From NCBI GenBank assembly GCA_040900015.1, contig JBBDZS010000023.1:25023-58246 (forward strand): DNA of 33,224 nt, written 5' to 3'. Position numbers and translations under genes: made by a program. Every line of letters starts with the position of its first letter. Position 1 is the first letter of the stretch. Under the pieces are notes generated by a model. It did not search any database and had not been told where the DNA came from. It worked only from the letters and a program-made list of their open reading frames with translations. The DNA comes from Minisyncoccota bacterium. Its GTDB lineage: Bacteria > Patescibacteriota > Minisyncoccia > Phycocordibacterales > UBA9973. Positions 166 to 30,374 of this stretch are shown piece after piece.

Positions 166-918
166 TTGAAAAAAATTATTCTAATAAACAAAAAGGAAGG
201 GGAGACGCCGCTTGAGGCGCTGGGCAGATTTCGCGAAAAGAATAAAAAGTATAAAGATGTGAAGATGACTTATGCCGGTCGGCTGGATCCGATGGCCTCT
301 GGACTTTTACTTGTGCTTGCCGGGGAAGAAACTAAAAATAAAGACAAATACAACCAATTTGATAAGGAGTACGAATTTGAAGTTCTGTTCGGTTTTGCCA
401 CGGACACTTACGACATCTTAGGCAAGATTGAACATTCTAACATTCTTGAGAATGTTAGAATGTCAGAACTGGCGAAAGATATAAAAAAGAGTTTGAAATA
501 CTTTACGGGTAAATTTAGGCAAAAGTATCCCATCTATTCTTCTAAGACAGTGGGGGGTAAGCAGCTTTTCCAGTACGCTAGAGACGGAGAGGAGGTGGGT
601 CTGCCAGAGAGAGAGGTGAATGTAAGGAATTTGCAATTTATCAAATTAAGAAAAGTCAGCAATAAAAATTTATTGAAAAATATAAAAAAGAGAATAAGTA
701 AAGTAAAAGGAGATTTCCGACAAGAAGAGATAATGGATATTTGGAGTAAAGAACTTAAGAAAGATAATGTCTTTTATATTGGAAGCTTTCACATTCGATG
801 CACCTCAGGCACCTATGTGAGAGGTATTGCTAATTCTCTGGGAGATAAAATCGGTATACCCGCACTAGCATTTTCGATCCAAAGGACAAAAGTAGGCAAG
901 TGGATAAAAGAGGAGTAG
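166..918 (+). CDS. truB: tRNA pseudouridine(55) synthase TruB-like, without C-terminal PUA domain
   Basis: Motifs YAGRLDPMASGLL (catalytic Asp), KEY, TDTYD, P-YS..V.GK.L..YAR.G and CTSGTYVR. TTG start. Confidence 0.85.
   Translation: MKKIILINKKEGETPLEALGRFREKNKKYKDVKMTYAGRLDPMASGLLLVLAGEETKNKDKYNQFDKEYEFEVLFGFATDTYDILGKIEHSNILENVRMSELAKDIKKSLKYFTGKFRQKYPIYSSKTVGGKQLFQYARDGEEVGLPEREVNVRNLQFIKLRKVSNKNLLKNIKKRISKVKGDFRQEEIMDIWSKELKKDNVFYIGSFHIRCTSGTYVRGIANSLGDKIGIPALAFSIQRTKVGKWIKEE
432..463. repeat. Perfect 15-bp inverted repeat inside truB
   Basis: ACATTCTAACATTCT-TG-AGAATGTTAGAATGT; each arm contains ACATTCT twice. Encodes (E)HSNILENVRM(S). Confidence 0.9.
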
Positions 919-927
919 AATTAATTC

Positions 928-3897
928 ATGAGTTCTGTTTTCAAGGAGGAGTATAAAAAGCTAAATAGTGCCCAGAAGGACGCCGTCAATTCTTTAGAGG
1001 GCCCGATAATGGTGGTGGCTGGTCCCGGCACGGGTAAAACCCAAGTGCTCGCTCTCCGTATTGCCAATATTCTAGAGAAGACCGATATAAAAGTAGACGG
1101 AATTTTATGTCTCACTTTTACTAATTCCGGCGTGGAAGCGATGAAAGATCGCTTGCGTTGTTATATAGGCGAAGCAGGGAACGAAGTAAATGTTTTTACC
1201 TTTCACGGTTTCGGGATGAAAATCATCGGAGAGCACTATAAAGTCCTAGGTCTTAATGAAGCACCGGAACTTTTGGAGGATACTGACCGAGCGATATTTT
1301 TTGATCAAATAATTAATGAAAATGATTGGCAGCACTTGCGTCCGCGTGGTAACAACATGCGATATTTTCAAGATCTCAAATCTCTAATTTCTCTTTTGAA
1401 GCGGGAGAGAATTTCCATAGAGGATTTTGAAGCGGGAATAGAAAAAGAAATAAATTATTTGGAGCGAGACGAAAGTAGCCGTTCGACCAGAGGAGCGAGC
1501 AAGGGCCAGCTGAAAAAAGAAGCACTAAATGCCATAGATGGGCTAAAACGAAGCAGGGAGATAATAAAATTTCTGAGGCTTTATGAAGACACAAAAAAAG
1601 AAAGGAATCTTATGGATTATGATGATGTTTTGGAGTCGTTGGTCTATATTGTGGAAAATTCCGACGATGCCGTTTCCTCGGTCCGTGAGAGATACCTATA
1701 TGTTCTTATAGACGAACACCAAGATTCTTCGCGCGTGCAGAACGAATTCCTGACCCGAGTGTGGGCCTCTGTAGAGCGGCCGGATATTTTCGTGGTCGGA
1801 GACGATCGGCAGCTTATATATGGTTTTTCTGGAGCTTCCATTGAGTATTTTGCAGGTTTCAAAAAAACCTTCCCGGATGCCAAGCTTATAACTCTTACTG
1901 ACAATTATCGTTCGACGCAGGTAATTTTAGATGCTTCTCATGCATTATTGGAGAGCGTATTAACCAAAGATAAACTAGTTAGCCAAAACAAAGAAAAGCA
2001 CCCCATAGAACTAGTAGATACAGAAACGCCGGAAGAAGAAATTGTTGCTGCTGCGCAAGATATTAAGTTGAAAATTTCCGCCAAAGGCGGATCCGCCTCT
2101 GGCGGAGAAAAATCCCTGAATCCAAACGACATCGCCATACTTGTGCCCAAAAATCGTCAGGTGCGCACGGCTATGGAGATATTACACAATGAAGGCGTGC
2201 CGGTCGGAGGGCTAGAGGCTCTTAGTCTTTTCGATCAAGATGAAACCTTAGCACTAATGCGGGTATTAAAAGTTATTAATAACGGAGATGTCGCCTCATT
2301 AGCGATGTCTTTTTTTGATAAAACCTCAGGTATAACACCTCTAGAAGCACACCAGTTTATAAGCAAAGAAAACATGCGTCAATTCTCTATTGAGAAAATT
2401 AGCGGAAAGTCTCTGACTCTTTTCCCTTCGGACAATAACGCAGAAAAATGGATTGCAAAACTTTTAAAATGGAAAAGTGATTTTGAAAATAATAATATGC
2501 AAAAGGACTTGAAATCCTTAATCCAGATGGTCGGTAAAGAATTACTTGAAGGGAAGGAAATAGAAAAAAAACTTGTTTCCGGAAAAATAATTTTGGACAC
2601 CGTGACTGATCTTTTCTCAAAGCAAGAAGAAAAAAATCCAGACATTACCATCGGTTGGTTTTTGGAATATTTAGAGAGGCTGGTTTCTTCGAATGAGTAT
2701 ATACCACTACTTGCCCCTTCTGGTGAAGGCGTCAAAGTGCTTACCATGCATTCTTCCAAGGGATTGGAATTCGATTATGTCTGGATAGCCCATATGGACG
2801 AGAAGTCCCTCTCAGGTGGTAGGCGTATGGGCCTGACCTTACCTGAGAGCATCGCGGAGAAGGTGGAAGAGCGCGACATTGATGCTATTAAGCGCAAGCT
2901 ATATGTGGCCATAACCCGGGCCAAAAAGTTTTGCAGGCTATCTTATTCCCGCGAGTCAGTCAAAGGGAGCGAACAGGAGCTCGCTAAGATAATTGCGGAA
3001 TTGCCGTCCGAAGTTTTCGAGAAGGTGAGCATAAGTGCCGGTAAGAAAAGAATTATTAAAAATACAAATTTACCTAAGCTACTAAAGTTGGTCGCAGATA
3101 AGTATAAAGATAGGTATGTCTCGGTATCACTTCTTAATAATTTTTTCGAATGTCCCTGGAAATGGTATTTTGAAAATTTACTACAGATGCCCAAGGATAA
3201 AATCGAAGTTCTCGAGTTTGGCATTGTAGTCCACGCGTCGATTGATAGAATATTAAAAATGAAAGATATTCCATCCGAGGAAAAAGTCGAGGATATAGTC
3301 ACGGAAGAAGTTTTAAGGCGGGAGTTTGGAGATGCCAGGGGTCGAGTGCGGATGGGTAGAGAAATTATAAATATTGTTTCATCCTGGGTTGAGAATCGTC
3401 TTCCAGAAATAAAGCTTAGCCGTAAGACCGAGGAGAGTATAACTGTAAATAATTCCGATTATCCCCATCTCAAAATTTATGGCAAGATTGACTTGATTGA
3501 AAACTTAACTGGAAAAGAAGCCAGAGAAGTAAGAGTGACAGACTTCAAAACCGGGAGCGTGCGAAGAAAGTCCGAAGTTGAGAAACTGGATGAGGAGGGC
3601 AGAATGAGTGGAAACTTAAGACAGCTGGCTATGTATTCGTATCTCCTGCGAGAGAATCCTAAATGGCGAGTGGATGCGAGAGAGAGCCGACTAGAATTTC
3701 TGGAAGAGAAGGATTTTGATAAGCGTATTTATAACACGGTGATAACGGTGAGAGAAATAGAGTTACTTAAGAAGGATATTAAGGACTACGATGAACTGGT
3801 AAAAAGCGAGGATTGGATAAATAGAGAGTGTCACTACAATTCCTACGGCAGAGGCACCGAATGCGAGTATTGCCAACTCGCAGAGATTTATAAATAA
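928..3897 (+). CDS. UvrD/PcrA-family SF1A helicase with C-terminal PD-(D/E)XK nuclease domain
   Basis: AGPGTGKT, LTFTN, LIDEHQD, VGDDRQLIYGF, NYRS, TMHSSKGLEFD and LYVAITRAK. C-terminal SVS..FECP, GKIDLIE, TDFKTG, QLAMY and a Cys cluster. Confidence 0.9.
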   Translation: MSSVFKEEYKKLNSAQKDAVNSLEGPIMVVAGPGTGKTQVLALRIANILEKTDIKVDGILCLTFTNSGVEAMKDRLRCYIGEAGNEVNVFTFHGFGMKIIGEHYKVLGLNEAPELLEDTDRAIFFDQIINENDWQHLRPRGNNMRYFQDLKSLISLLKRERISIEDFEAGIEKEINYLERDESSRSTRGASKGQLKKEALNAIDGLKRSREIIKFLRLYEDTKKERNLMDYDDVLESLVYIVENSDDAVSSVRERYLYVLIDEHQDSSRVQNEFLTRVWASVERPDIFVVGDDRQLIYGFSGASIEYFAGFKKTFPDAKLITLTDNYRSTQVILDASHALLESVLTKDKLVSQNKEKHPIELVDTETPEEEIVAAAQDIKLKISAKGGSASGGEKSLNPNDIAILVPKNRQVRTAMEILHNEGVPVGGLEALSLFDQDETLALMRVLKVINNGDVASLAMSFFDKTSGITPLEAHQFISKENMRQFSIEKISGKSLTLFPSDNNAEKWIAKLLKWKSDFENNNMQKDLKSLIQMVGKELLEGKEIEKKLVSGKIILDTVTDLFSKQEEKNPDITIGWFLEYLERLVSSNEYIPLLAPSGEGVKVLTMHSSKGLEFDYVWIAHMDEKSLSGGRRMGLTLPESIAEKVEERDIDAIKRKLYVAITRAKKFCRLSYSRESVKGSEQELAKIIAELPSEVFEKVSISAGKKRIIKNTNLPKLLKLVADKYKDRYVSVSLLNNFFECPWKWYFENLLQMPKDKIEVLEFGIVVHASIDRILKMKDIPSEEKVEDIVTEEVLRREFGDARGRVRMGREIINIVSSWVENRLPEIKLSRKTEESITVNNSDYPHLKIYGKIDLIENLTGKEAREVRVTDFKTGSVRRKSEVEKLDEEGRMSGNLRQLAMYSYLLRENPKWRVDARESRLEFLEEKDFDKRIYNTVITVREIELLKKDIKDYDELVKSEDWINRECHYNSYGRGTECEYCQLAEIYK
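2077..2106. repeat. 30-nt double-hairpin element, copy 1 (in frame, SAKGGSASGG)
   Basis: TCCGCC-AAA-GGCGGA-TCCGCC-TCT-GGCGGA; identical to 6769-6798. Confidence 0.95.
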
Positions 3898-3900
3898 CTC

Positions 3901-3929
3901 TTGTAATTTAATTTTTTTATATATAAGAT
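3901..3929 (+). promoter_or_regulatory. Sigma70-type promoter of trhO (leaderless type)
   Basis: TTGTAA (3901-3906), 17 nt, TAAGAT (3924-3929), 6 nt, ATG at 3936. Confidence 0.55.
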
Positions 3930-3935
3930 AGCTTT

Positions 3936-4979
3936 ATGTACAAGAAGGTAAACAAAAAGTCGAAAGTTGAGCTTTTGAAGGATTTGGAGATGGAGAACTT
4001 CAAGAGGAAAACTATTTCTTTCTATAAATATGTGAAGATAGAGGATCCGAAAGTAATGCGGGACTTTTTGTTTGATAAATTATCCGAGCTGAAGTGCCTC
4101 GGTAGGATATATGTAGCGAGCGAAGGCATAAACGCGCAGATGAACGTGCCGGAACATAACTGGGAGGCGTTTGATTCTTTTATTCAATCAATGCCCGAGT
4201 TTACAGGAGTGTCATATAAGCTGGCAGTAGAAGAGAGAGAAAAGTCCAGCTTTATAAAATTGATCGTGAAGGTACGACAAAAAATCGTGGCCGACGGGCT
4301 CGAAGATAATACTTTTGATCCGTCGAATACCGGAGAATATGCTACAGCCGAGGATGTAAACTCCATGATAGAGCGAGGGGCGACGGTAATAGACATGCGC
4401 AACATGTACGAGGCGGCCATCGGACATTTTGAGAACGCGAAGATAATGAACGTGGATACTTTTCGCGAACAGCTTAAGAAAGTTCATGATATGTTCAAAG
4501 ACAAGAAAGATGAGGAAGTGCTACTGTACTGCACAGGAGGGATCCGCTGCGAGAAAGCGTCCGCCTGGATGAAGCACACCGGTTTTAAAAATGTGAAGCA
4601 CATTAAGGGAGGTATTATCGAATATGCCCATAGGGCGAAGGAGAAAGGGTTGGAGAACAAATTCAAAGGTAAGAACTTCGTCTTCGACGAGAGAATGGGA
4701 GAGAAGGTGGGGGATGAGGTCATAGCATACTGTCAGGCTTGCGAAAAGGTGAAGTGCGACAATTATATCCACTGCAAGAACGAGTCCTGTCATGTGCTCT
4801 TCATATGCTGTCAGACCTGCGAAAAGAGACAGAAGGGTTACTGTGGGAAAGTATGCATGATTTGTGACAAGTTTCCTAAAAAACTAAATCAGGTTTTGGT
4901 TGGCTCCGACCGTCAGAGGCACGAAAATCAATACCGAAAGAACTACAAAAGAGTTAAAGCCTTAAACTATTTGAAATAA
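3936..4979 (+). CDS. trhO: Rhodanese-domain tRNA uridine(34) hydroxylase (YceA/TrhO, UPF0176)
   Basis: SFYKY, GRIYVASEGINAQ, IDMRNMYE..IGHF, YCTGGIRCEKAS, GKNFVFDER and a Cys-rich C terminus. Confidence 0.88.
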   Translation: MYKKVNKKSKVELLKDLEMENFKRKTISFYKYVKIEDPKVMRDFLFDKLSELKCLGRIYVASEGINAQMNVPEHNWEAFDSFIQSMPEFTGVSYKLAVEEREKSSFIKLIVKVRQKIVADGLEDNTFDPSNTGEYATAEDVNSMIERGATVIDMRNMYEAAIGHFENAKIMNVDTFREQLKKVHDMFKDKKDEEVLLYCTGGIRCEKASAWMKHTGFKNVKHIKGGIIEYAHRAKEKGLENKFKGKNFVFDERMGEKVGDEVIAYCQACEKVKCDNYIHCKNESCHVLFICCQTCEKRQKGYCGKVCMICDKFPKKLNQVLVGSDRQRHENQYRKNYKRVKALNYLK

Positions 4980-4985
4980 AGGCGT

Positions 4986-6116
4986 CTAGCGTATGACACC
5001 GTCGAAATTTTTTGTGGTTTCTGTTTCGAGTTTTTTGTGCACTTGGTCTATCTCTTCCGCAGTCAGCGTCCGCTCGAGCGAGCGATAGGTGATGCGGTAT
5101 GCGTAGCTAAGTTTATCTTCTCCGAATTTTTCCGCGTTTTCATATTTATCAAGGAGTGCCACCTCTTCTACGATTCCAGGCGCTGTTTCCCTTACAAAGT
5201 CGAAATAGTCATTCGGTATGAACTCCTTGCTGACTATGAAAGAAATATCTCTCATAACAGGTGGATATTTACTGACTTCGACAAATTTATGCCCCAGCTT
5301 GAGTTGTTTTTTTACTCTCTCATCTTCGGACCATAGAAGCCGGATGTCGGGCAATTGCATACTGGCAATAGCCAAGCGTTCCAAGCCGAAGCCGAAGGCC
5401 CAACCATGATAGCCTTCGAGACCCAAATTAGATAGTACGCTTTTCCTTACTATTCCAGAGCCAAGCATTTCGATCCACTGTCCGTTGATTTCTGCTTCCA
5501 TCTCGAAACTTGGATCCGTATAAGGAAAGTTGTGGTCGTAAAATCGGAAATTAATATCACCAAAGATGCTAGTCGCGATTTCTGTCAGCGCTTTTTTGAG
5601 ATCTTCGGGAGTTATTGTCTTTTTATCATCTGGGGCAATGAGCCACCCTCCGAATTGATGGAAAACATTCATATGTCGAGCATCGATTTCGTCTTTGCGG
5701 TAAACCTTGCCATAACATATTGCCCCCAATGTCTCTTTATTTTCAATTCGCTTTTTTATGTCTGGATGATTAAGATAGTAGTACCAAAATACAGTATCAT
5801 GCGTGCGAAGCACATTTTTTTTATCCACATAATAAGTATCCGATTCACTACGAGCGGGGTGCCCTTCCGGCATATTGAATAAATCAAATAAAATATTGGT
5901 AGGCACGATCTCCGGTATTTTTATATCATCGAAATCTTTGAGGGAGGAAACTTCTTTGGCTTTTTTGACGATTTCTGCAAGGGGACTACTGGAAGTCCGG
6001 GCTAGGTCCGGCATAGAAAGATACCTTTTTAATCTCATAGAATGGACATCGGTCTTTTCTTCGAGTTCCTTTCTAAAAGAAGCTTCTTCGGGAGATATTA
6101 TGTCGTAATTTGCCAT
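4986..6116 (-). CDS. pheS: Phenylalanyl-tRNA synthetase catalytic domain fused to a C-terminal FDX-ACB anticodon-binding domain (single-chain type)
   Basis: FDLFNMPEGHPARSESDTYY, LRTHD, YRKDEIDARH..FHQ, FPYTDPSFE and AFGFGLERLA..PDIRLLWS, followed by YPPVMRDISF...YRITYRSLERTLT. Confidence 0.9.
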   Translation of the reverse strand: MANYDIISPEEASFRKELEEKTDVHSMRLKRYLSMPDLARTSSSPLAEIVKKAKEVSSLKDFDDIKIPEIVPTNILFDLFNMPEGHPARSESDTYYVDKKNVLRTHDTVFWYYYLNHPDIKKRIENKETLGAICYGKVYRKDEIDARHMNVFHQFGGWLIAPDDKKTITPEDLKKALTEIATSIFGDINFRFYDHNFPYTDPSFEMEAEINGQWIEMLGSGIVRKSVLSNLGLEGYHGWAFGFGLERLAIASMQLPDIRLLWSEDERVKKQLKLGHKFVEVSKYPPVMRDISFIVSKEFIPNDYFDFVRETAPGIVEEVALLDKYENAEKFGEDKLSYAYRITYRSLERTLTAEEIDQVHKKLETETTKNFDGVIR

Positions 6117-6202
6117 TCTTTTAGTTTAAATAAAAATGGCTAAAAAGTAAAGGTTTATCAACATATTTTGCTCAATTTACACTAGCAAACACTATCTATT
6201 TT

Positions 6203-6211
6203 TGCTATAAT
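6203..6211 (+). promoter_or_regulatory. Extended -10 promoter of gyrB
   Basis: TGcTATAAT, 8 nt before ATG 6220; no SD. Confidence 0.6.
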
Positions 6212-6219
6212 ACCCCCAC

Positions 6220-8328
6220 ATGGCAAAAGATAAAGAAGGCAAAGGCGGGCATCAATATGACGCATCGGATATATCGGTTTTAGAGGGCCTGGAACCCGTC
6301 AGGAAGCGTCCTGGGATGTATATTGGTACGACGGGCCCGGAAGGTCTGCACCACCTTGTTTGGGAGATTTTCGACAACTCACGCGACGAAGCAATGGGTG
6401 GTTTTTGTGATGATATTGAGGTGGTGTTATTGCCTGGCAATAGGGTTCGGGTAGCGGACAATGGCCGAGGTATCCCCGTAGATATGCACAAGAAGACCAA
6501 GGTCTCAGCGCTCGAGACGGTGATGACGACTCTCCATGCCGGAGGAAAATTCGGCGGTGAAGGATATAAAGTTTCTGGAGGTCTGCACGGAGTAGGTGCT
6601 TCGGTGGTCAACGCACTTTCTATTTATTGTCGGGCCGAAGTGCATCGAGATGGTGGCAGGTATGTGCAGGAATATTCTCAAGGTAAGAAGAAATTCGCAG
6701 TCAAGAAAGTCGCTGCATCCAAGAATCACGGAACAATAATAACTTTCGAACCTGACCAGGAAATTTTTTCCGCCAAAGGCGGATCCGCCTCTGGCGGAAA
6801 AGATGATGGGATCAAGTTTGATTGGAACACTATCGTCGCTCACATCCGCCAGCAGGCGTATCTGGTAAAAGGATTACGCATTTCTATAATCGACGCCCGC
6901 GAGTGGCAAAGCGGAAAAGGTTTGACCGAGGAGGATGTATTTTATTTCCGGGAGCTCGGGCTCGAAGTTCCATCAGTATCTTTCTATTTCGAAGGCGGAC
7001 TGATATCCCTCGTGAAGTATTACAATAAGTTCCAAAAGCCTATACAAGATCATATTTTTTATGTGGAAAAAGAAATGGATGGAGTGGGGGTTGAGATAGC
7101 GCTCCAATATGTGGACGATATTGTAGATAGGATATTTCCTTTTGCAAACAATATTTTTACCGCAGAGGGTGGCACTCATGTGACTGGATTTAAAACCGCG
7201 CTCACTCGAACCCTCAATACTTATTGTAAGAAGAATGAAATGATGAAGGAGTCCGAAGGGGGATTTACTGGCGACGATGTGCTCGAGGGTCTTACCGCCG
7301 TTATCTCGGTCAAGCTTCAGGAAATACAATTCGAAGGCCAGACCAAGGGCAAACTCGGCTCTATGGAGGCGCAGGGTGCAGTGGCGACCATCTTCGGTGA
7401 GGCCTTTACTAGTTTTCTAGAGGAGAACCCCGACGAGGCGAAATCTATAATAAACAAATCAATACTAGCTCTTAAGGCGAGAAAGGCAGCCAAGGCAGCT
7501 AAGGATTCCGTGCTTAGGAAGGGCGCACTCGAAGGTATGACTCTCCCGGGCAAACTGGCAGATTGTCAGTCGAAAAGTGCAGAAGAATCCGAATTATTCC
7601 TTGTAGAGGGAGACTCCGCAGGAGGCTCCGCCAAACAAGGCAGAGATAGGAGAACCCAAGCGATACTTCCGCTCCGCGGAAAGATATTGAATGTGGAGAG
7701 AGCTCGCATCGACAAGATGCTCGCATCGAAAGAAGTACGGTCTTTGGTTATAGCTATGGGAACATCGATCGGAGACACCTTCGATATTTCCAAGGTTCGC
7801 TATCATAAGATAATAATCGCCACGGATGCGGATGTGGACGGTTCGCATATCCGTACGCTTTTACTTACTCTTTTTTATAGATACTTCCGTGAAGTTATCG
7901 ATGCAGGATATATTTACATCGCCCAGCCACCGCTATATAAGATTAAGAAGGGCAAGGAGATATCTTATGCATATACTGACGAAGAAAAGGTAAAGATCAT
8001 CGGCAAGGGCGCGGATGTGAGTGAGATTCAGGAAGCTGAAAGTCCCGAACAAAGTGAGGGATTAGAAACCGAAAGAGAGGAGGCGCCTGAAGAAGTCGCA
8101 AAAAAGGCAAACAAAATACACATCCAGCGCTTCAAAGGTCTCGGAGAAATGAATCCGGAAGAATTGTGGGAGACGACCATGGATCCTGCGCACAGAGTGC
8201 TTAAGAAAGTAAATATTGATGATGCCGAAGAGGCGAATAAAGTTTTCGATATTCTCATGGGCTCCGAAGTTCCTCCTCGAAAGTCCTTTATTCAATCAAA
8301 CGCTAAATTGGCGGAAATTGATATCTAG
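6220..8328 (+). CDS. gyrB: DNA gyrase subunit B
   Basis: LEGLEPVRKRPGMYIG, DNGRGIP, LHAGGKF, SGGLHGVG, LVEGDSAGGSAK, PLRGKILN, TDADVDG and QRFKGLGEMNP. Confidence 0.97.
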   Translation: MAKDKEGKGGHQYDASDISVLEGLEPVRKRPGMYIGTTGPEGLHHLVWEIFDNSRDEAMGGFCDDIEVVLLPGNRVRVADNGRGIPVDMHKKTKVSALETVMTTLHAGGKFGGEGYKVSGGLHGVGASVVNALSIYCRAEVHRDGGRYVQEYSQGKKKFAVKKVAASKNHGTIITFEPDQEIFSAKGGSASGGKDDGIKFDWNTIVAHIRQQAYLVKGLRISIIDAREWQSGKGLTEEDVFYFRELGLEVPSVSFYFEGGLISLVKYYNKFQKPIQDHIFYVEKEMDGVGVEIALQYVDDIVDRIFPFANNIFTAEGGTHVTGFKTALTRTLNTYCKKNEMMKESEGGFTGDDVLEGLTAVISVKLQEIQFEGQTKGKLGSMEAQGAVATIFGEAFTSFLEENPDEAKSIINKSILALKARKAAKAAKDSVLRKGALEGMTLPGKLADCQSKSAEESELFLVEGDSAGGSAKQGRDRRTQAILPLRGKILNVERARIDKMLASKEVRSLVIAMGTSIGDTFDISKVRYHKIIIATDADVDGSHIRTLLLTLFYRYFREVIDAGYIYIAQPPLYKIKKGKEISYAYTDEEKVKIIGKGADVSEIQEAESPEQSEGLETEREEAPEEVAKKANKIHIQRFKGLGEMNPEELWETTMDPAHRVLKKVNIDDAEEANKVFDILMGSEVPPRKSFIQSNAKLAEIDI
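6769..6798. repeat. 30-nt double-hairpin element, copy 2 (in frame, SAKGGSASGG)
   Basis: Identical to 2077-2106; the flanking T-run and A-run extend the outer stem. Confidence 0.95.
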
Positions 8329-8330
8329 TT

Positions 8331-8864
8331 ATGAAAATTAACGTTGGGTCAAAAAATATCACTAAAATTGAGGCTGTTAAAGAAGCATTCAATGAATTTC
8401 CTAATTTTACTAATTCAACTGTTGTGGGTGTAGAAGTAGATTCTGGGGTTCATAAACAACCAAAAAGTATTGATGAAACAGTACAAGGCGCAATGAATAG
8501 AGCTAAAAGTGCTTTTAATGATTGCGACTTGTCTGTGGGATTAGAAAGTGGGCTTATCGTAGTTCCTAATACTAAAAGTGGTTATATGGATATAACCATG
8601 TGCGCTATTTATGATGGTAAGGTTTTTCATTTAGGTGGCTCTTCGGCTTTTGAATATCCAAAATCAATGATTGATCTAGTTTTCAGTAAAGATTATGACA
8701 TTAGTGAAGCAGCTAAAGCCGTCGGTTTCTCTCATGATGACAATCTTGGCGAAAGAGAAGGGATGATAGGTGTTTTAACAAAGGGAAAATTAAACAGACA
8801 AGGGTACAGCAAGCAAGCAGTTATTACAGCACTTATTCATTTACTAAACCCTGAACATTACTGA
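8331..8864 (+). CDS. yjjX: Non-canonical purine NTP (ITP/XTP) phosphatase, YjjX/DUF84 family
   Basis: VGSKN..KIEAV, SGVHKQP...ET.QGAMNRA, VGLESG and G.IG.LT.G...R. AT-rich codon usage. Confidence 0.85.
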   Translation: MKINVGSKNITKIEAVKEAFNEFPNFTNSTVVGVEVDSGVHKQPKSIDETVQGAMNRAKSAFNDCDLSVGLESGLIVVPNTKSGYMDITMCAIYDGKVFHLGGSSAFEYPKSMIDLVFSKDYDISEAAKAVGFSHDDNLGEREGMIGVLTKGKLNRQGYSKQAVITALIHLLNPEHY

Positions 8865-8899
8865 GAATGATTAGATTATTTCTTAGCCTCACATCAATT

Positions 8900-8923
8900 T
8901 ATACTATGATATATCGTAGTATA
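8900..8923. repeat. 24-bp palindrome downstream of the TrpR-like gene
   Basis: TATACTATGATATATCGTAGTATA; one mismatch from perfect dyad TATACTACGATATATCGTAGTATA. Confidence 0.9.
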
Positions 8924-8939
8924 AGATTATTTACTTTAT

Positions 8940-9353
8940 TTACTCAAAATCTTTAAATATTTTCTTCCAACGACCTCGTCCTGCTTTAGGGTGTAATGTT
9001 CCACCAGCTGTAAGTAGAAATTCAATTAAATCTAAAACCCCTTTTTGCTTTTTGTTTGCAATTTTTAGAATTATATTGTATTTACCATTCTCAATATTTA
9101 GTGACGTCTTTGCCACCGTTGAAGGGCTTACGCGTAATATATCAACAATACGGTGCTGTGGGATCTCTTTACTTAGGAGAAGTATTATTGCAAGTCGCTT
9201 AGATAGCATTATCTTTTCAGTATAGGTAAAAAGCTCTTGAAACAGAGGATATAAATCGTTGTCTTCTGAGGCCTGCCCGAAAGTGGAAAGTAGCTTTTTG
9301 TTTAATTTATTAAGAGTTTCTTTCTTAAGTTTTTTACTAGAAACGTGAGGCAT
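8940..9353 (-). CDS. TrpR/YerC/YecD-like helix-turn-helix protein
   Basis: LFTYTEKIMLSKRLAIILLL...HRIVDILRVSPSTVAK matches the TrpR/YerC pattern LxTxxE...xxRL.I...L + HTH (S.ST..R/K). Confidence 0.7.
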   Translation of the reverse strand: MPHVSSKKLKKETLNKLNKKLLSTFGQASEDNDLYPLFQELFTYTEKIMLSKRLAIILLLSKEIPQHRIVDILRVSPSTVAKTSLNIENGKYNIILKIANKKQKGVLDLIEFLLTAGGTLHPKAGRGRWKKIFKDFE

Positions 9354-9362
9354 ATATTATAT

Positions 9363-9386
9363 TATACTACAATATATCGTAGTATA
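9363..9386. repeat. 24-bp palindrome overlapping the TrpR-like gene promoter (putative operator)
   Basis: TATACTACAATATATCGTAGTATA; overlaps minus-strand TATAAT (9361-9366), which lies 7 nt from ATG 9353. Extra half-site ATATCGTAGTA at 9391-9401. Confidence 0.9.
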
Positions 9387-9415
9387 GTAAATATCGTAGT
9401 ACAGTAAATTGTGAC

Positions 9416-19176: not shown

Positions 19177-19180
19177 TTTA

Positions 19181-19206: not shown

Positions 19207-19221
19207 GATATAATGCCAAAA

Positions 19222-19881: not shown

Positions 19882-19936
19882 GATAATTTTAAGAAACTTG
19901 GATTTCGAGGTATAATTATCAAAGGGAGGCGTTCTT

Positions 19937-20272: not shown

Positions 20273-20300
20273 GTATCCTTAGGGTTTTAAAAAATCATCC

Positions 20301-20345
20301 GTCCGCCGGCAGTCGAACCGCAAAGTTCGCCCCGGCGGACTTTGT
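20301..20345 (+). terminator. GC-rich hairpin after the orphan ORF
   Basis: GTCCGCCGG..CGAAC-CGCAAA-GTTCG..CCGGCGGAC followed by TTTGT. Confidence 0.55.
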
Positions 20346-20365
20346 CTTGGGTAAATATTGCCCAT

Positions 20366-20394
20366 TTGACAATTATTACAAAAAAGAGTAAGCT
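20366..20394 (+). promoter_or_regulatory. Sigma70 promoter of rpoB
   Basis: TTGACA (20366-20371), 17 nt, TAAGCT (20389-20394). Confidence 0.7.
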
Positions 20395-20466
20395 ATTATA
20401 GATTCATTGATTGAGTATCGGATGCAATCTCCTTATTAATAAGCCTTTAAAGGCGTTTTTTAATTT

Positions 20467-23400: not shown

Positions 23401-23652
23401 AGATTCGGAGAAATGGAAGTCTGGGCTTTGGAAGGATACGGCGCAGCCTATACTCTTCGGGAAATGTTGACCATCAAGTCAGACGATATAAGTGGCCGAT
23501 CTGCGACATTCGATTCGATTATTAAAAACGAAATTATTAGACCGCCTAACTCTCCGGCCTCCTTTAATGTCCTCTTGAATTATTTGCGTGGACTGGCCTT
23601 GGATGTGAATTTGAAAAAATCAGGCGACAGAGGTTTAGAGACAGATAATTAA
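20467..23652 (+). CDS. rpoB: RNA polymerase beta subunit
   Basis: FIINGVERV, DDIDHLG, HYGRVCPIHTPEGPNIGL, RALMGSNMQKQ, GDKLSGRHGNKG and GGQRFGEME. Confidence 0.98.
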   Translation: MHTIKARPKKYFSRYKKPLAPFPNLIEAQVKSFKWMAEKGISEVFKEFSPIQDYSGKKFQLEFTSFSLGESKTSENDSKVNKLSYQGLLKARVKLTNKILGTVKEQEIFMSELPLMTPHGTFIINGVERVIVPQLARSFGVFFTDSEIKGKRFFGAKIIPARGVWIEVESDPDGAIYIRIDKKRKFPATALLRAMGYETNEMMLSAVSKNPKAEEALNICLAKDSAKTQNDAYIDIYKRLRDGDMATAENAKEFINSLFTSERYDLSPVGRFRFNQRFGKPMDGGEMGRRTISKEDLMTVITHIIALNGTPGAQSDDIDHLGQRRVRFVGEILQQKIRTGMMQIKRNIQDRMSIIDVDTAMPIQIINQRPLQARIKEFFTTNQLSQFMAQENVLYEMEHLRTLSALGPGGLTRERAGLEVRDVHPSHYGRVCPIHTPEGPNIGLILHLSTYAKINEFGIIETPYIKVKNGKITNEMVYLNALEEEKYNIAHAGIPYDEDGKITEPKVAARVKTEPGTIAREEVDFIDVAANQAFSLATSMIPFLEHNDANRALMGSNMQKQAVPCVLPEAPLVATGIEELASRDSGRLVIAEEDGVVSYVDAKKVVVSGKSEKTYTLVNFLRNNNFSTFHQRGAVNVGQKVKKGDVLADTSSTVGGQISIGQNIFIAFLSWSGANYEDAIIVSERLVKKSKFTSVYVEEFVCTVRDTKLGPEITTRDIPNVGELKLKDLDEDGIVRIGAEVRENDILVGKITPKGETELTPEERLLRSIFAEKARDVKDTSLRMEHGKRGRIIGVKIFSRDLGHSLEAGIIKKIVIEVAQIRNISVGDKLSGRHGNKGVISTILPEEDMPYTADGTPIDIILSPLGVPSRMNLGQILEMHLGMAANSLGYQAIVPPFLGAKHDEIREELKKAGLPETGKLKLYDGRTGEPFEQDVAVGYMYMLKLHHMVEDKIHMRSIGPYSLITQQPLGGKAQGGGQRFGEMEVWALEGYGAAYTLREMLTIKSDDISGRSATFDSIIKNEIIRPPNSPASFNVLLNYLRGLALDVNLKKSGDRGLETDN

Positions 23653-23669
23653 AAAATAAAAATAATAAT

Positions 23670-26600
23670 ATGAAAACTCTAAATACAACTGAATTTGATC
23701 ACATCACGCTTAGGCTGGCGAGTCCGGAGCAAATAAAAGAATGGTCCTTCGGAGAAGTGACCAAGCCTGAGACGATAAACTACCGTACCGGACGAAGCGA
23801 GCGAGGAGGTCTTTTCGACGAGAAGATATTCGGGCCGGAAAAGGATTACGAATGTTACTGCGGAAAGTACCGCCGCATCCGTTATAAGGACATTATCTGC
23901 GAAAAGTGCGGAGTCGAAGTTACTCGATCGATCGTTCGTCGGGAACGCATGGGGCATATCGAGCTTTCCACACCTGTATCCCACATCTGGTTTCTAAGAG
24001 GTGTTCCGTCTCGAATGAGCATACTCCTAAACATTTCCGTATCTGATCTGGAGAAGGTCATTTATTTTGCTGGTTATATAATTACGAAAGTTCACGAAGA
24101 TGAGAAGAAGACTGTCGTCGAAAATTTGGATAGGGAATACAAGGCGAAGTTGAAAAATTCTGCCGACGATGAAACTCGTGAAAAGCTAAAGTCCCTACTT
24201 TCGATCACCAAAAAAGAAATAGGTGAAATTTACGAAGGCAAGGTGCTAAATGAAATTTCATTCCACCACTATTCTCTGAAATACGGGACTTGCTTTGAGG
24301 CAAACATAGGCGCGGAAGCTATCTATTCAATTTTCAAGAATCTAGATTTGAACAAACTGAAAACCCACACCGAAACGATGATAGAGAAGGCGAGCGTCGT
24401 TGAAAAAGAAAAATTACAAAAACGGCTTTCTCTTATCCGGGCGATGACTTATGCAGATATTCGTCCAGAATGGATGTTCTTGACGGTAATTCCTGTGATT
24501 CCTCCTGTGCTTCGGCCTATGGTGGCGCTCGATGGTGGCCGTCATGCTACTTCGGACTTAAACGACCTTTATCGTCGGGTGATAAACCGAAACAACCGTT
24601 TGAAGAAACTGAAGGAAATCAATGCTCCAGATGTAATTTTGCGTAACGAAAAAAGAATTATTCAGGAGGCTGTAGACGCACTTATAGACAATTCTATCGC
24701 CAAACAAAACGACGGCGCTGCTATGAGTCAATCTCAGAAGCGACCCCTAAAATCTCTTTCTGACAACCTAAAATCCAAGCAAGGTCTTTTCCGCCAGAAC
24801 CTGCTCGGTAAGCGCGTAGACTATTCTGGCCGATCTGTGATCGTCGTCGGTCCACAGCTGAAATTGAATCAGTGTGGACTGCCGAAACATATGGCGCTGG
24901 AGCTATTTCGCCCCTTTGTCATTTCCAAGATACTTCAAGCTGAACTTGCTTTCAACATCCGAGGGGCCAATAAATTGATCGAGGAGCGAACCAGCGAAGT
25001 GTGGGCGATGCTTGAAGAGGTGATAGCTGGCAAGTATGTGCTCCTAAACCGTGCGCCTACCCTGCACCGTCTCGGTATTCAGGCTTTCAACCCTATACTT
25101 ATCGAAGGCAATGCGATTCAAGTGCATCCGCTTGTCTGTCAGGCTTTCAACGCTGACTTCGATGGTGACCAAATGGCAGTATATGTTCCTTTACTTGAGG
25201 AGGCACAGTGGGAAGCTAAGGAATTAATGGCGGCTAATAAGAATTTACTCAAGCCTCAAAACGGTGACCCGATCGTGCATCCATCCAAGGATATGGTGCT
25301 TGGAAGCTATTGGATGACTAAGAATTCTGACGGAGAGGCGGGCGAAGGAAAATATTTTTCCAGCCCAAACACAGCGATAACCGCTTATGAGTATGGCGTT
25401 GTTTCTCTTCGTGCTAAAATAAAAGTACTCGCGACAGATACTCCAAAATATAAGAAATTCGACGGAGGGATTTTCGACACTTCGGTCGGCAAATTGCTTT
25501 TCAATAGCATTCTTCCGAACGACTTCTCTTATATAAACGATGAGATGACCCAAAAGCGTATTTCTGCGCTAGTAGACGAGCTCATAATGCACTACGGAGT
25601 AGATGCTACACCACCAATACTAGACAAAATAAAAGCTTTCGGATTCAAATACTCCACGGTTTCTGGCACCACTTGGGGACTGGACAATGTTAAAGTGCCG
25701 GTAGACAAGCCAAATATAATTGCTAAAGGTAGGAAGCTCGAAGACGAGGTGGTCGCGCAGTGGCGGGATGGACTTCTTTCCGAAGATGAAAGATATCAGA
25801 AGATTATTGAAATTTGGACCCATGTCAAGAAAGATTTGGAAAAGATTCTTCCGATTACTCTAGATAAAAACGGTTCGACTTACGACTTGTTCACCTCAGG
25901 AGCACGAGGCACTATGACTTCCTTGGTGCAAATGACCGGAATGAAGGGCCTTATCCAAAACAACCAGGGTAAGACGCTCGAATTCCCAATCATACCTTCT
26001 TATCAGGAAGGTCTTTCACCGATCGAATATTTCGTCACCACGCACGGAGCCCGAAAAGGAGCATCGGATACTGCGCTTAACACAGCTAAGGCGGGATATT
26101 TGACGCGCCGACTCGTTGATGTCGCTCAGGATGTGGTCATTACTGAGGAGGATTGCGGTACCAAAGAAGGCAAAATGGTTTCCAAAGAAAATATCTCCGG
26201 AATCGAAATACCACTGTCAAAAAATATCCGTGGGCGCGTACTCGCAAGCGACTTGAAGAAAAAAGATGGGACCGTAGCTTACAAAAAAGGATTTTTGGTC
26301 ACCAAGGAGGATGCTTACGATATCGAGGGAGCTGGATTCGAAGAAGTGTTCGTGCGTTCTCCTCTTACTTGCAAGACTGTCCACGGGCTATGCCAGATGT
26401 GCTATGGGCTGGACCTCGGACGCAATCATTTGGTTGACTTAGGCGAAGCGGTAGGCATTATCGCAGCGCAGGCTATCGGTGAGCCGGGAACCCAGCTGAC
26501 ACTCCGCACATTCCACGCTGGAGGCGTGGCAGGTACGGACATCACCACTGGTCTGCCTCGTATTGAAGAAATCTTTGAAAGGAGAATTCCTAAGAACCCC

Positions 26601-27296
26601 GCCATTGTATCTGAAACAGACGGTGAAGTGATGGCGATAGAGGATAAGGATGGCAAAGAAAAAATAATCAAGGTGCTTTCGGACCTGTCTGCGCAGGCAG
26701 GCTCCAAAGAAGACGGCAAGAAAAACGAAATGGAGTATGTAGTCCAGTTCCGACGAACACCGATCGTGAAGGTCGGAGACAAGGTAAAGAAAGGCGAACT
26801 TCTGACTGACGGTTCTGCGGATATTGCCGAGATATTCAAATTTGGTAGCAAGGAAATGGTAGAGGAATATATTATCCGAGAAATCAACAAAGTGTACGAA
26901 TTACAGAGTGCTTCGATTTCTCGAAAACATACAGAAATAATAATTCGTCAGATGTTCTCTCGTCGCAAGATTAAGGATGCGGGTGAAACTAATTTCTCCG
27001 CCGGAGATATAGTCGAAAATACCGCTTTCATAGAAGAAAATGCCCGGGTGGCAGGATTGGGAGCTAAGGAGTCTAAAGCAGAAATAGTCGCTCTGGGAAT
27101 CACCGAAGTTTCTCTTCGCACTAAGAGCTGGCTTTCCGCAGCTTCATTCCAGAATACTAACCGTGTCTTGATTGAGAACGCTGTAAAGGGCGGAGTAGAT
27201 AATCTACGAGGACTAAAAGAGAATGTAATCATCGGCCGACTCATCCCAGCTGGAACTGGATTTAAGGCGAAAGTTAAAGAAGCTAAGGAGGAATAA
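23670..27296 (+). CDS. rpoC: RNA polymerase beta' subunit
   Basis: Zn-finger [47 protein letters not shown] and [17 protein letters not shown]. Confidence 0.98.
26684..26701. repeat. 18-nt GC-rich palindrome inside rpoC
   Basis: CCTGTCTGC|GCAGGCAGG, one mismatch; encodes (D)LSAQAG. Confidence 0.6.
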
Positions 27297-27302
27297 AAAC
27301 AT

Positions 27303-29084
27303 ATGAACTCTCCCGTTCAAAAAATTAAGGAGAGGCTTTCAATCGAAGAAGTGGTCTCTTCTTATGTAAAGTTGGAGAAAATGGGTCAGAACCTCAAGGC
27401 TCGTTGCCCGTTCCATAATGAGAAGACCCCTTCGTTCTTCCTTTCGCCTGCGCGGGGTAGCTATTATTGTTTTGGTTGTGGCGCAAAGGGCGACATATTT
27501 ACTTTCGTAGAAGAATTCGAGGGTCTAGATTTCAAAGGCGCTTTGAAGCTCCTAGCAGAGCGTGCTGGTGTGCCGCTTGAAGCATATACCAAAGAATCAA
27601 AAGAAGCTGAAAATGAAAAGGAAAAGCTATATAGGGCGATGGAAGAGGCGACTTTGTTCTTTGAGAAGAATTTGAAAGAGAATCAGGAAGTATTGGAATA
27701 TTTAAAGTTACGCGGATTAAATGAGAAAAGTATAGAAGATTTTAGGTTAGGTTTTGCTGTTTTAGATTGGCGCAAGCTATACGATTTCTTGAAGTCGAAA
27801 AATTTTACTGACTCTGAAATTGAAGGAGCAGGTTTGGCCAAAAAACCCGAGGATAGGAACAAGGCAATGTATGATAGGTTTCGTGGAAGAATAATGTTTC
27901 CGATTATGGATACGAGTGGCCGGGTGATAGCTTTCTCCGGGCGTATTTTCGAAGATGACGGTAAGAGCGCAAAATATTTGAACTCACCAGAGACGCCGAT
28001 TTTTAGTAAGCATGCAGTGCTTTATGGGATGGATAAAGCGAAAGAGTCCATTAGGAAGAATAATTTCTCGATATTGGTGGAAGGGCAGATGGATTTGGTT
28101 TTGTCTCATCAAGCAGGCTTCAAGAATACTGTTGCGACTTCGGGGACTGCTCTATCTGAATCTACCATTAATAAGGAGAACGCAGTCAGCAATCTTGGTC
28201 TGCTTCGCCGTCTTTCTGGAAATATTGTTCTGGCATTTGATGCGGACAAGGCGGGGATAAATGCCACTCTCCGCGCAGGCAAAATAGCCCTATCGCTCGG
28301 CATGGATGTAAAGGTTGCTGACCTTCCGGAAGAGACCGACCCTGCCGACCTTATTCAAAAGGAAGGAGGGGGGGCATGGAAGGAGGCAATCCGTGGATCG
28401 AAACATTTGATCGAATTTATGCTTTCCAAAATTATAAAACAGACAGGCGGCGAAGAGCGAAAACTGGGACGAGAAATTAAGGAAAAAATATTACCTTATG
28501 TGGATTCGCTCGGTAGTTCGATAGAACAGATGTATTTTTTGAAAAAGATCAGCGAGTCCTCCAGCATACCCTTAGATGCGCTTAAGGAAGATCTGAAAAA
28601 AGTGGAGCAGGAATTAAAGTACGAAAAGAAGGAAAATGCCAGCGGTGGAGCAGACTTGCTTACGATTAAAAGAAAGGATTATATTTTACGCAGATTACTA
28701 GGTATTGTGCTCTGGCAAGAAGGTAAAACCGAGAAAGACATAGACATCGAAGCAGTTTTGTCTTCATTGGCTGAGATATTAAACATCGAAAAGGGGGAAG
28801 TATTGCGGGGCGCAGAAGAGAACAAGAATGATTTGATATTCGAAGCCGAAGTTTTTTACGGAGAAGGCGTAGACCTAAAAAAAGATTTATCAGAAATGCT
28901 TGGGAACCTGGGCGAAGAATATTTGAAAGAAGGGCTCCTCCGGAAAATGATGGAATTACAAGTAGTTGAAGAAAAAGGAGATTCGGTCGAATCTTCCAGA
29001 ATCTTGAAAGAGATAAGTGAAATTAACAATAAAATACAAGAGATTAAAAACGGTCGCTTTTCCGCCAAAGGCGGATTAGCCTAG
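27303..29084 (+). CDS. dnaG: DNA primase
   Basis: CPFHNEKTPSF..CFGC, DRFRGRIMFPI, KYLNSPET, VEGQMD and FDADKAG. Confidence 0.96.
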   Translation: MNSPVQKIKERLSIEEVVSSYVKLEKMGQNLKARCPFHNEKTPSFFLSPARGSYYCFGCGAKGDIFTFVEEFEGLDFKGALKLLAERAGVPLEAYTKESKEAENEKEKLYRAMEEATLFFEKNLKENQEVLEYLKLRGLNEKSIEDFRLGFAVLDWRKLYDFLKSKNFTDSEIEGAGLAKKPEDRNKAMYDRFRGRIMFPIMDTSGRVIAFSGRIFEDDGKSAKYLNSPETPIFSKHAVLYGMDKAKESIRKNNFSILVEGQMDLVLSHQAGFKNTVATSGTALSESTINKENAVSNLGLLRRLSGNIVLAFDADKAGINATLRAGKIALSLGMDVKVADLPEETDPADLIQKEGGGAWKEAIRGSKHLIEFMLSKIIKQTGGEERKLGREIKEKILPYVDSLGSSIEQMYFLKKISESSSIPLDALKEDLKKVEQELKYEKKENASGGADLLTIKRKDYILRRLLGIVLWQEGKTEKDIDIEAVLSSLAEILNIEKGEVLRGAEENKNDLIFEAEVFYGEGVDLKKDLSEMLGNLGEEYLKEGLLRKMMELQVVEEKGDSVESSRILKEISEINNKIQEIKNGRFSAKGGLA

Positions 29085-29090
29085 GGTTGA
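29061..29090. repeat. 30-nt double-hairpin element, degenerate copy 3, containing the dnaG stop codon
   Basis: TCCGCC-AAA-GGCGGA-TTAGCC-TAG-GGTTGA; first 16 nt identical to copies 1 and 2. Confidence 0.8.
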
Positions 29091-29117
29091 AAAAATTATC
29101 ATAATAATTTAAAATAT

Positions 29118-30374
29118 ATGAAAAAGAAAACAAAAGACAAAAAAAGGAATAAAAAGAAGATTATAAGTAAGTCCCGACGCCCAAAGGGGTCGGGGTCCCG
29201 ACTGAAAACGTCGGGGAAAAAATCAATCAAAAAGGTTGTAAAAAAGAAGGTTGCCCCGAAGAAAAAAATTAAAAAAGAAAAAGCCAAAAAGATTTCTACA
29301 AACCAAAAAAGAGCTGAGGCTCTAGCAATGACCTCTGATACTCTGATCGAGAAGGGTCGTAAGCGGGGATTTATAACTTATGACGAGATACTGAAGACTT
29401 TTCCTGACATCGAGAATAACATCCTTTTCTTAGATGAGCTTTACGAGAAGTTCGCGATTGCCGGCATCGATGTACTCGAAGGTGGCAATTTGCTTAACCT
29501 AGATACCGAGCTTTCAGACAAGGATCTTAATAAATCTATAATCAATGACTCCATCCAGATGTACCTCAAGGAGATAGGGCAGTACCCCCTCATTCACGCA
29601 AGCGAGGAGAAGGATTTGGCCAAGCGCATCGAAGCAGGCGACCTGGAAGCCAAGAATTTACTGGCCCGTGCCAACCTCCGCCTCGTAGTATCTATTGCCA
29701 AGAAATATGTAGGACGCAGTGCTAATCTGACGCTACTCGATCTAATTCAGGAGGGCAACCTGGGTCTCTTTAAGGCTGTAGAGAAATTCGATTGGACTAA
29801 AGGTTATAAGTTTTCAACTTATGCTACTTGGTGGATCAGGCAGTCTATTACTAGGGCTCTGGCGGATCAGTCGAGGACTATTCGTATTCCAGTGCACATG
29901 GTGGAAACTATTTCCAAATACAAGCAGACTCATCGTAGACTTTCTCAAGACCTAGGCCGCGAGCCTTTGGCTGAAGAGATTGCGACCGAAATGGGAATTC
30001 CCGTAGAGAAAATACATGTGATAGAAAATATTTCTCAAGAAACAGTTTCCTTAGAACAGCCAGTAGGTGACGATGACGACAAGTCGACCCTTGAGAATTT
30101 CATTCCAGACGACAAGATACTCCGCCCCGATCAGGAGTCTTCCCGTCGCATTCTCTCTGATCAGATTCGCGAGGTACTCGATGAGTTGAATCCAAAAGAA
30201 AGAAAGATACTCGAGATGCGTTATGGTCTGCTCGATGGTATTCAACACACCCTGGAGCGAGTAGGGGAAGAATTCGGAGTCACTCGTGAACGCATCCGTC
30301 AGATCGAAGCGAAAGTACACGAAAAGCTCCGCCAGCACGAAAAAATTTCGAGACTCAAGAATTACTTTGATTAA
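29118..30374 (+). CDS. rpoD: Primary sigma factor RpoD/SigA with Lys-rich N-terminal extension
   Basis: Region 1.1-like [56 protein letters not shown] and TRERIRQIE. Confidence 0.96.
29172..29216. repeat. 45-nt double-hairpin element in the rpoD 5' region (in frame, [15 protein letters not shown])
   Basis: TCCCGAC-GCCCAAAGGG-GTCGGGG-TCCCGAC-TGAAAAC-GTCGGGG. Confidence 0.8.

Follow-up and report, generated by a model that had tools for sequence, protein, structure and literature searches.

Six short palindromic DNA elements lie in frame inside truB, gyrB, rpoC, dnaG, rpoD and a helicase gene on one 33,224-nucleotide stretch of the genome of a Minisyncoccota bacterium (GCA_040900015.1, here G000; the stretch, G000:C23:25023-58246, is hereafter the window). 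One of the families to which they belong, a 30-nt double hairpin that we call family A, inserts as an exact unit at TTY|RAA without target duplication. Judged from orthologue alignments, copy numbers and reading frames, these elements are very probably mobile and translated. A wider reading, in which they make up several families of ultra-short (18-45 nt) palindromic mobile elements moved by a proposed enzyme acting in trans, appears likely to us on the same sequence comparisons.

Six in-frame elements and their empty sites

An initial annotation, made from the letters of the window, had proposed six palindromic elements of about four sequence families, two of them with a tandem-hairpin layout, that leave the frames of these genes unbroken. 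All six were found where it had placed them. We assigned them to families A, B, C and D, each of which is multi-copy in G000, and the tandem-hairpin layout is that of families A and D. The elements are:

2077..2106, family A in the helicase gene: 30 nt, encoding SAKGGSASGG
6769..6798, family A in gyrB: identical to the helicase copy at 30/30 nt and in the same frame, encoding SAKGGSASGG
29061..29090, family A at the 3' end of dnaG: hairpin 1 intact, hairpin 2 degenerate
26684..26701, family B in rpoC: 18-nt palindrome CCTGTCTGCGCAGGCAGG, encoding LSAQAG
432..463, family C in truB: 32 nt, ACATTCTAACATTCT-TG-AGAATGTTAGAATGT, encoding EHSNILENVRMS
29172..29216, family D in rpoD: 45-nt double hairpin, CCCGAC..GTCGGGG twice, encoding 15 residues

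Family A consists of two hairpins, TCCGCCnnnGGCGGA + TCCGCCnnnGGCGGA, with the general form TCCGCC-nnn-GGCGGA twice; in gyrB the copy is followed by an extra GATGGG at 6805-6810. Family C is built of ACATTCT twice, a 2-nt spacer and AGAATGT twice, and the family D element occupies the lysine-rich N-terminus of RpoD.

Alignment of same-genus orthologues at each site (80-92% protein identity for GyrB) exposed empty sites for most of these elements. In gyrB, 26 of 27 orthologues lack the insert and read GAAATTTT(T/C)|AAAGAT at the empty site; at the DNA level G000 has gained exactly 30 nt between TTTTT and AAAGAT, with no duplication, and G021 carries a degenerate 18+6 nt at the same position. 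The 10 helicase residues are absent from all 23 orthologues, one of which (G042) reads SAQSR there. LSAQAG is missing from each of 29 RpoC orthologues, leaving a clean 6-residue gap in 21. The 15 RpoD residues are common, with changes, to G020 and G009 only (2/29), and the other 27 orthologues are without them. At dnaG, all 28 orthologues end in ..IKNGR(L/F/Y)x(K) and none has SAKGG; G000 reads ..GRF-SAKGGLA, its stop codon being the TAG in the loop of the degenerate second hairpin (29082-29084). This copy alters or replaces the C-terminus instead of adding a loop.

TruB gave a different result: orthologues are equal in length at the family C site, which is a variable loop. In three of them (G014, G024 and G001) partial symmetry persists, as ATTCTnnnATTCT..AGAATnnnAGAAT, and both arms have changed; in other species the site holds a stretch of comparable length and unrelated sequence, palindromic as well in some cases. 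The truB palindrome therefore appears to be old, shared and diverging rather than a fresh insertion, and five of the six elements are, as far as these alignments tell, lineage-specific insertions. The earlier proposal, in which core proteins gain peptide from miniature non-autonomous elements, is thus borne out by multiple copies, empty sites and patchy spread, and needs amending at truB, where the alignments held no length difference, and at dnaG, where the C-terminus is changed.

The target of family A emerges from a wider collection. We assembled a public set of at least 120 family A loci (one genome per species scanned), with 123 sites; the 120 are the matches listed, and all counts given below for listed loci or sites are among these matches. 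Across the 123 sites the stems are near-invariant and the loops variable, with a preference for NNA (AGA 47, AAA 46, GGA 28, CAA 26). Flank statistics drew on the 96 listed sites from loci below 52% G+C: position -2 is T in 81 and position -1 is T or C in 82, and the 3' side mirrors this. Since these flanks are already present at the empty gyrB, helicase and dnaG sites, TTY|RAA is a target preference and not part of the insert.

Other insertions were seen in the same proteins. The rpoC genes of G042, G020, G005 and G003 (L186, L173, L193 and L181) carry further short in-frame inserts near the same sites; that of G042 RpoC comprises 13 residues, PVRSAFSTADAGG (39 nt), and is partly palindromic in DNA. 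The G011 helicase (L197) has a 10-residue insert, PARPDGRSGG. In G024, GyrB (G024:C3:30738-34130, L033) has an interruption of ~1.27 kb within one open frame of 1133 residues, which looks like an intein, and G015 GyrB (G015:C3:68440-70557, L032) has ~70 nt between two aligned pieces.

Genes in the window were named by Pfam, rpoB among them; those that hold the elements are:

1..918, plus strand, truB (TruB_N), its 5' end beyond the window
928..3897, plus strand, UvrD-like helicase with a PD-(D/E)XK nuclease domain
6220..8328, plus strand, gyrB
23670..27296, plus strand, rpoC
27303..29084, plus strand, dnaG
29118..30374, plus strand, rpoD

The window also holds two near-identical AT-rich palindromes of 25-26 nt, TTATACTAnnATATATCGTAGTATA, at 8899-8924 and 9360-9389, on either side of a minus-strand open reading frame (ORF; 8940-9353, 137 amino acids) that matches Trp_repressor/HTH. 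They look like operators of an autoregulated repressor, outside the GC-rich families.

Copy number, spread and translation

G000 is a draft of 503,951 bases in 23 contigs, with ~43% G+C and an estimated completeness of 88%; ~92% of it is ORF by a crude call, and same-phylum relatives have genomes of 0.4-2 Mb. Within it, family A occupies 16 loci per 504 kb, 11 inside ORFs and 5 intergenic, family B 6 loci at one mismatch or fewer, and family C 5 loci, the intergenic ones on contigs C5 and C22. Two copies of families C and D outside the window are:

G000:C14:12803-12838, family C in a uvrC-like gene: same frame as in truB, encoding GHSDILKNVGMS
G000:C21:10013-10055, second family D copy: inverted, intergenic

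Genome-wide counting against a codon-shuffled background, the check suggested with the initial annotation, placed families A and B above that background. With 20 codon shuffles of all G000 ORFs and intergenic DNA left unchanged, 28 family A units were observed against a shuffle mean of 8.1, which equals the retained intergenic copies, and 4 family B copies against 0; GC-rich 6-bp hairpins numbered 202 against 109 +/- 8. A reversed pattern, run as a specificity control on every genome scanned, including 401 from the phylum, returned 0 matches. Both families are repetitive and palindromic, with perfect 6-9 bp stems.

The proteins that carry the elements are unrelated to one another. Family A lies in FtsK, PurD (at the N-terminus), AtpD, a TP-methylase, Pol I, PNPase, an Ig-like surface protein, GyrA, the helicase, GyrB and DnaG; family B lies in RpoC, AtpD, a pseudouridine synthase, TopA and TypA, the five loci examined all being in ORFs and the sixth (the C15 copy) standing outside that count. 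A 20-nt variant, B', is found inside FtsK. Only two pairs of family A copies in G000 are identical, 4.7 and 5.6 kb apart and each on one contig; this closeness suggests that family A copies locally and has done so recently. A further palindrome family, ACTTGGACATC-G-GATGTCCAAGT, was noticed at G000:C16:9779-9801, C16:12568-12590, C7:8827-8853 and C10:1561-1579. Two of its copies are in ORFs (GatB and a 488-amino-acid ORF without a Pfam match) and two lie 5' of duplicated 515-amino-acid ORFs, also without a Pfam match, in a direct repeat of ~2.8 kb.

Scanned with an exact degenerate pattern, family A is patchily present among relatives: in 6 of 24 same-genus genomes, in 2 of 16 other families of the order, and in 49 of the 401 phylum genomes sampled (47 of 319 genera), at up to about a dozen loci per genome. 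Family B is found in 18 of 151 class genomes. Most carriers of the listed family A loci come from many classes of Patescibacteria, and the same set extends to Kiritimatiellae, Omnitrophota, Planctomycetes, Ignavibacteria and metagenome-assembled genomes labelled Gammaproteobacteria. One Kiritimatiellae record (L049) has family A within an intergenic composite repeat of ~185 nt, at 4569-4752 and 6390-6572, the two copies lying 1.8 kb apart and being 99-100% identical.

The reading frames argue for translation. In G000, all 8 in-ORF copies of the CCGCC type (by the first or only hairpin read) are in the frame S-A-x-G-G. Three in-ORF copies are in the frame Q/P-P-x-A-D; the one on C5 is mixed and the other two are purely of the CAGCC type. 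Each of them has GGCTGA at its end, which the S-A-x-G-G frame would read with TGA in frame. Where a CAGCC-type second hairpin does stand in the S-A-x-G-G frame it reads CCAGCC..GGCTGG, so that the stop is gone and the pairing intact. Stem variants in general (CCGCC/GGCGG, CAGCC/GGCTG, CCAGCC/GGCTGG) all keep pairing, and such compensatory change indicates that the hairpin itself is under constraint. In other genomes the S-A-x-G-G frame is used at 44 of 60 listed in-ORF sites (binomial p = 4e-4 against 0.5). Within G000 ORFs, 53% of TTY|RAA sites coincide with a codon boundary, so target choice accounts for part of this frame bias and peptide selection for the rest. Together, the covariation of variant with frame and the avoidance of stops argue that the elements are translated. 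The inserts are multiples of three, Pfam domains run on across them on both sides, and solved GyrB/ParE chains have a gap at the position of the gyrB insert.

Other identities for the hairpins were considered and set aside. Inteins or introns fit poorly with lengths that are multiples of three and with stop-bearing variants that appear to be kept out of the terminating frame. Intrinsic terminators were rejected because a T-run precedes and an A-run follows the hairpins on both strands, and restriction sites because the centre varies (GGATCC, GGACCC or TGATCA). CRISPR-like arrays are not present.

Candidate enzymes and competing explanations

As the elements have no coding capacity, an enzyme would have to act in trans. 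None lies in the window, in agreement with the initial annotation, which had seen no mobilising enzyme there; elsewhere, G000 has two Y1 genes and three small GIY-YIG genes. We propose the following course of events. With ~92% of the genome in ORFs, most insertions would land inside genes, and survival would be limited to insertions that leave the frame intact, introduce no stop and add a small flexible peptide, read for family A mostly in the frame S-A-x-G-G-S/P-A-x-G-G/W; core enzymes would in this way come to carry elements as translated loops. The trans-acting enzyme may be a single-domain GIY-YIG nuclease of ~80-100 amino acids, encoded in cassettes beside tRNA genes, where the D-loop or anticodon loop of a duplicated tRNA fragment next to the cassette holds a palindrome (family A, B-like or another). 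Solo palindromes could then be the enzyme-less miniature form of such cassettes, or plugs at nuclease cut sites. We name the small GIY-YIG protein as the best candidate partner enzyme, and do so tentatively.

The three small GIY-YIG ORFs of G000 (80-89 amino acids) all stand beside tRNA genes, each with an upstream tRNA 5' fragment whose D-loop has a palindromic or GC-rich insert. The insert on contig C16, within a tRNA-Thr fragment upstream of the GIY-YIG gene, is B' (CCTGCCTGCCGGCAGGCAGG); on C1 it is irregular and GC-rich; on C17 it is a 34-nt double hairpin, F (CCCGCC-5-GGCGGG + TCGCC-5-GGCGA), in tRNA-Gln fragments. F has three copies. Two are in the tRNA-Gln fragments around the GIY-YIG ORF and an intact tRNA-Gln (G000:C17:1-540, L290/L294), and the third (G000:C21:10142-10175) lies 30 nt upstream of the 16S rRNA gene and ~90-130 nt downstream of the second family D copy. 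Family A itself takes the equivalent tRNA-fragment position upstream of a GIY-YIG gene in G007:C2. The C16 GIY-YIG locus is not colinear with five relatives.

The association holds across genomes. Small GIY-YIG genes accompany 10 of the 120 listed family A loci, with 13, 14, 25, 38, 46, 54, 69, 131, 234 and 948 nt between the GIY-YIG domain and the element; seven of these fall within 70 nt, and by chance a number at least that high would arise with a probability of 5.6e-8; in 9 of the 120 the distance is at most 234 nt. Two layouts recur, mostly at tRNA-Ser. In one, the element occupies the D-loop or anticodon loop of a tRNA fragment, which is followed by the GIY-YIG gene and then an intact tRNA; in the other, an intact tRNA and the GIY-YIG gene are followed by a tRNA copy holding the element. 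Most cassettes have a single copy inside the tRNA fragment, and L126 has inverted family A copies on both sides of the GIY-YIG ORF. Of 41 class genomes, 36 have small GIY-YIG genes, a single genome giving as many as 8 matches. An unbiased class sample of 29 GIY-YIG loci had a same-strand tRNA within 400 nt in 13 and an element beside the gene in 7, and family-like palindromes were 8.3 times denser within 200 nt of GIY-YIG genes than farther out in these loci (8 per 11.4 kb against 6 per 71 kb, p = 1.8e-4). A tRNA-Thr(GGT) in G001:C33 (L335, reverse strand, ~2430-2690) has an insert of ~195 nt in its anticodon loop, which holds a family A-like hairpin, TCCGCC-GACT-GGCGGA; ARAGORN makes no call there.

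A bolder version of this scheme sees phylum-wide 'nano-transposons' in Patescibacteria and some other uncultivated lineages, 18-45-nt hairpin modules of GIY-YIG cassettes that home into tRNA genes. Cleavage by the nuclease would fall on the hairpins or next to them, and TTY|RAA sites throughout the genome would receive the module, whether released or copied. We regard this version as possible and, on balance, doubtful.

Several observations weigh against the scheme as a whole. No GIY-YIG gene stands beside any family A copy in G000 (88% complete), including those in the window, and 110 of the 120 listed loci have none within 8 kb. Where family A lies within 400 nt of an intact tRNA (21 elements), 12 have no GIY-YIG gene in the locus, so two independent agents may share tRNA genes as their target. 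The palindrome is often inside the tRNA fragment and not at the cassette border, and the pasting of DNA into new sites by a GIY-YIG nuclease alone is unexplained; the GIY-YIG/tRNA tie is statistically strong and mechanistically unexplained. Without an indel at truB, family C may be older than the other families or of a different nature. That the elements are translated and not removed is probable from frame logic only. An AlphaFold2 model of GyrB 1-420 (10-row same-genus alignment) had a mean predicted local distance difference test score (pLDDT) of 44, with residues 185-198 as low-confidence coil; it is too poor to place the insert in a loop and is not evidence.

The main alternative enzyme is a Y1 (HUH) transposase of the IS200-like kind or of the kind associated with repetitive extragenic palindromic sequences (REPs), known as REP-associated tyrosine transposases (RAYTs). 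Families A-D would then resemble REPs or their doublets, REPINs, and be mobilised as single-stranded hairpins at the replication fork, a mode that would also insert without target duplication; for REPINs, a RAYT dimer acting on the hairpin doublet has been proposed (PMC3116915). Y1 genes (PF01797) do occur in G000 (2), G007 (10), G014 (11), G001 (4) and G009 (1), reaching 11 per 0.7 Mb in relatives, each with its own hairpins. The two in G000 are:

G000:C14:6614-7366, Y1 (PF01797) gene 1, with inverted hairpin copies TGAGCAAGG-5-CCTTGCTCA on both sides
G000:C12:18225-18905, Y1 (PF01797) gene 2

The best NCBIfam match of the G000 gene is a REP-associated tyrosine transposase, at 40 bits and below the cut-off of 80, and in G007 4 of 10 family A loci are less than 5 kb from a Y1 gene, where ~17% would be expected for each. 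Every Y1 gene examined has its own hairpins alongside, mostly inverted, as around RAYTs; yet those beside both G000 genes and seven genes of relatives belong to none of families A-D, and in G000 they occur only at the Y1 gene and are not dispersed. G014 and G001, with 11 and 4 Y1 genes, have no family A match, and a Y1 gene is present in only 2 of the 120 listed loci, 3.7 and 2.1 kb away, one of them a GC-rich record from outside the Candidate Phyla Radiation (CPR). REPs have a conserved unpaired tetranucleotide before the hairpin, and families A-D have none. We therefore hold Y1 mobilisation to be improbable. The initial annotation had suggested asking which genes, Y1/RAYT transposases and GIY-YIG nucleases among them, are flanked by clustered copies: small GIY-YIG genes adjoin family members, and Y1 genes have other hairpins alongside. 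The TnpB/Cas12f-like TNB domain (PF07282) had no match in G000, G007, G009, G001 or G014.

Mobility itself can be questioned. The palindromes might have been selected in place for a function, as flexible linkers, RNA or DNA structures, protein-binding sites or DNA-uptake signals, and spread by recombination. The absence of an indel at truB, with partial symmetry in three relatives, suits this idea, as do the intergenic copies of families A and C ~10-25 nt from start codons, those of family C filling short spacers. Many of the proteins concerned handle DNA (FtsK, PolA, GyrA, GyrB, the helicase, DnaG, TopA, RpoC), and uptake sequences are biased towards genome-maintenance genes; but the 16 family A copies in G000 are far below uptake-signal densities, and palindromic elements cannot be polar. 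In-place selection also sits badly with 30/30-nt identity between the unrelated helicase and gyrB genes, with clean indels against close relatives, and with the recurrence, over many classes, of the same 30-mer in intergenic DNA, tRNA fragments and unrelated proteins, and we consider it very unlikely. For an artefact of assembly or sequencing (an adaptor, a linker or chimeric reads) in a metagenome-assembled genome one could cite the 23-contig draft, which has N runs, and the GGATCC in the centre of family A. Records of family A stem from many separate projects and a range of methods, single-cell and long-read assemblies among them, and have variable loops, compensatory stem variants and in-frame stop avoidance, which leaves an artefact only a negligible chance.

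Significance and relation to known systems

If confirmed, these elements would be among the smallest mobile DNA units known, lodged in the most conserved genes of some of the smallest cellular genomes. They would imply that genome reduction does not purge selfish DNA and instead forces it into coding sequence, as raw material for protein loops. The insertions are recognisable lineage-specific indels in the marker proteins GyrB, RpoC and RpoD, where they are liable to distort alignments and trees; they might also be used to tell strains apart. The GIY-YIG/tRNA tie puts forward a specific candidate, open to test, for the movement of palindromic repeats that lack an enzyme, a question of long standing. 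Were the nano-transposon version true, it would mean a new transposition route without an HUH or DDE enzyme, and surface loops of gyrase, RNA polymerase, primase, Pol I, FtsK and ATP synthase that are continuously rewritten.

The nearest bacterial precedent, by analogy, would be the Rickettsia palindromic elements, which PMC10969869 describes as ~150 bp long, of several families, with a conserved peptide of their own, and in frame in housekeeping genes of a reduced genome. The elements described here likewise are palindromic, fall into several families, sit in frame in unrelated genes, add peptide and have no known transposase. Compared with that description, they are ~3-8 times shorter (18, 30, 32 and 45 nt) and, instead of being confined to one genus, extend across a phylum and beyond, with a link to tRNA and small GIY-YIG genes. 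With REP/REPIN-RAYT systems (PMC3116915) they share short GC-rich hairpins, often as doublets, several families per genome and stem covariation. REPs are by definition extragenic and each family adjoins its RAYT, whereas here ORFs house 11 of the 16 family A copies and the hairpins at the Y1 genes are of other kinds. GC clusters and double-hairpin elements of fungal mitochondria are also very short GC-rich palindromes in AT-rich compact genomes, some of them in coding regions; PMC4478555 is one paper on such elements. They are organellar and ours bacterial, and the likeness is one of description, not of sequence.

In Magnusiomyces, translational bypass elements are skipped by the ribosome; here, in contrast, frame and stop avoidance argue for translation. 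[quoted passage not shown] We know of no transposase for them and, to our knowledge, they neither occupy core genes in frame nor have a link to GIY-YIG or tRNA genes. SDR are named in PMC3116915. MITEs have terminal inverted repeats and a target-site duplication, unlike the gyrB insertion, which gained 30 nt with no duplication.

The proposed enzyme has relatives in a known setting. In CPR rRNA genes, GIY-YIG proteins occur in non-intron insertions, alongside many short (<200 bp) uncharacterised insertions, according to the available text of PMC11270868, in which the strings 'palindrom', 'hairpin' and 'tRNA' do not occur. Like those insertions and GIY-YIG homing endonucleases, whether free-standing or borne by introns, the small GIY-YIG genes are multi-copy, variably placed cassettes in stable-RNA genes. 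Homing copies an element into a homologous empty site and leaves the insertion of a 30-mer into unrelated genes unexplained. The literature searched, supplements aside, held no account of in-frame palindromic insertions in CPR/Patescibacteria or of a GIY-YIG/tRNA/palindrome link. Set against these systems, the kind of element is known, namely miniature palindromic mobile DNA that inserts in frame; what is unusual is its size, its phylum-wide spread and its tie to GIY-YIG and tRNA genes.

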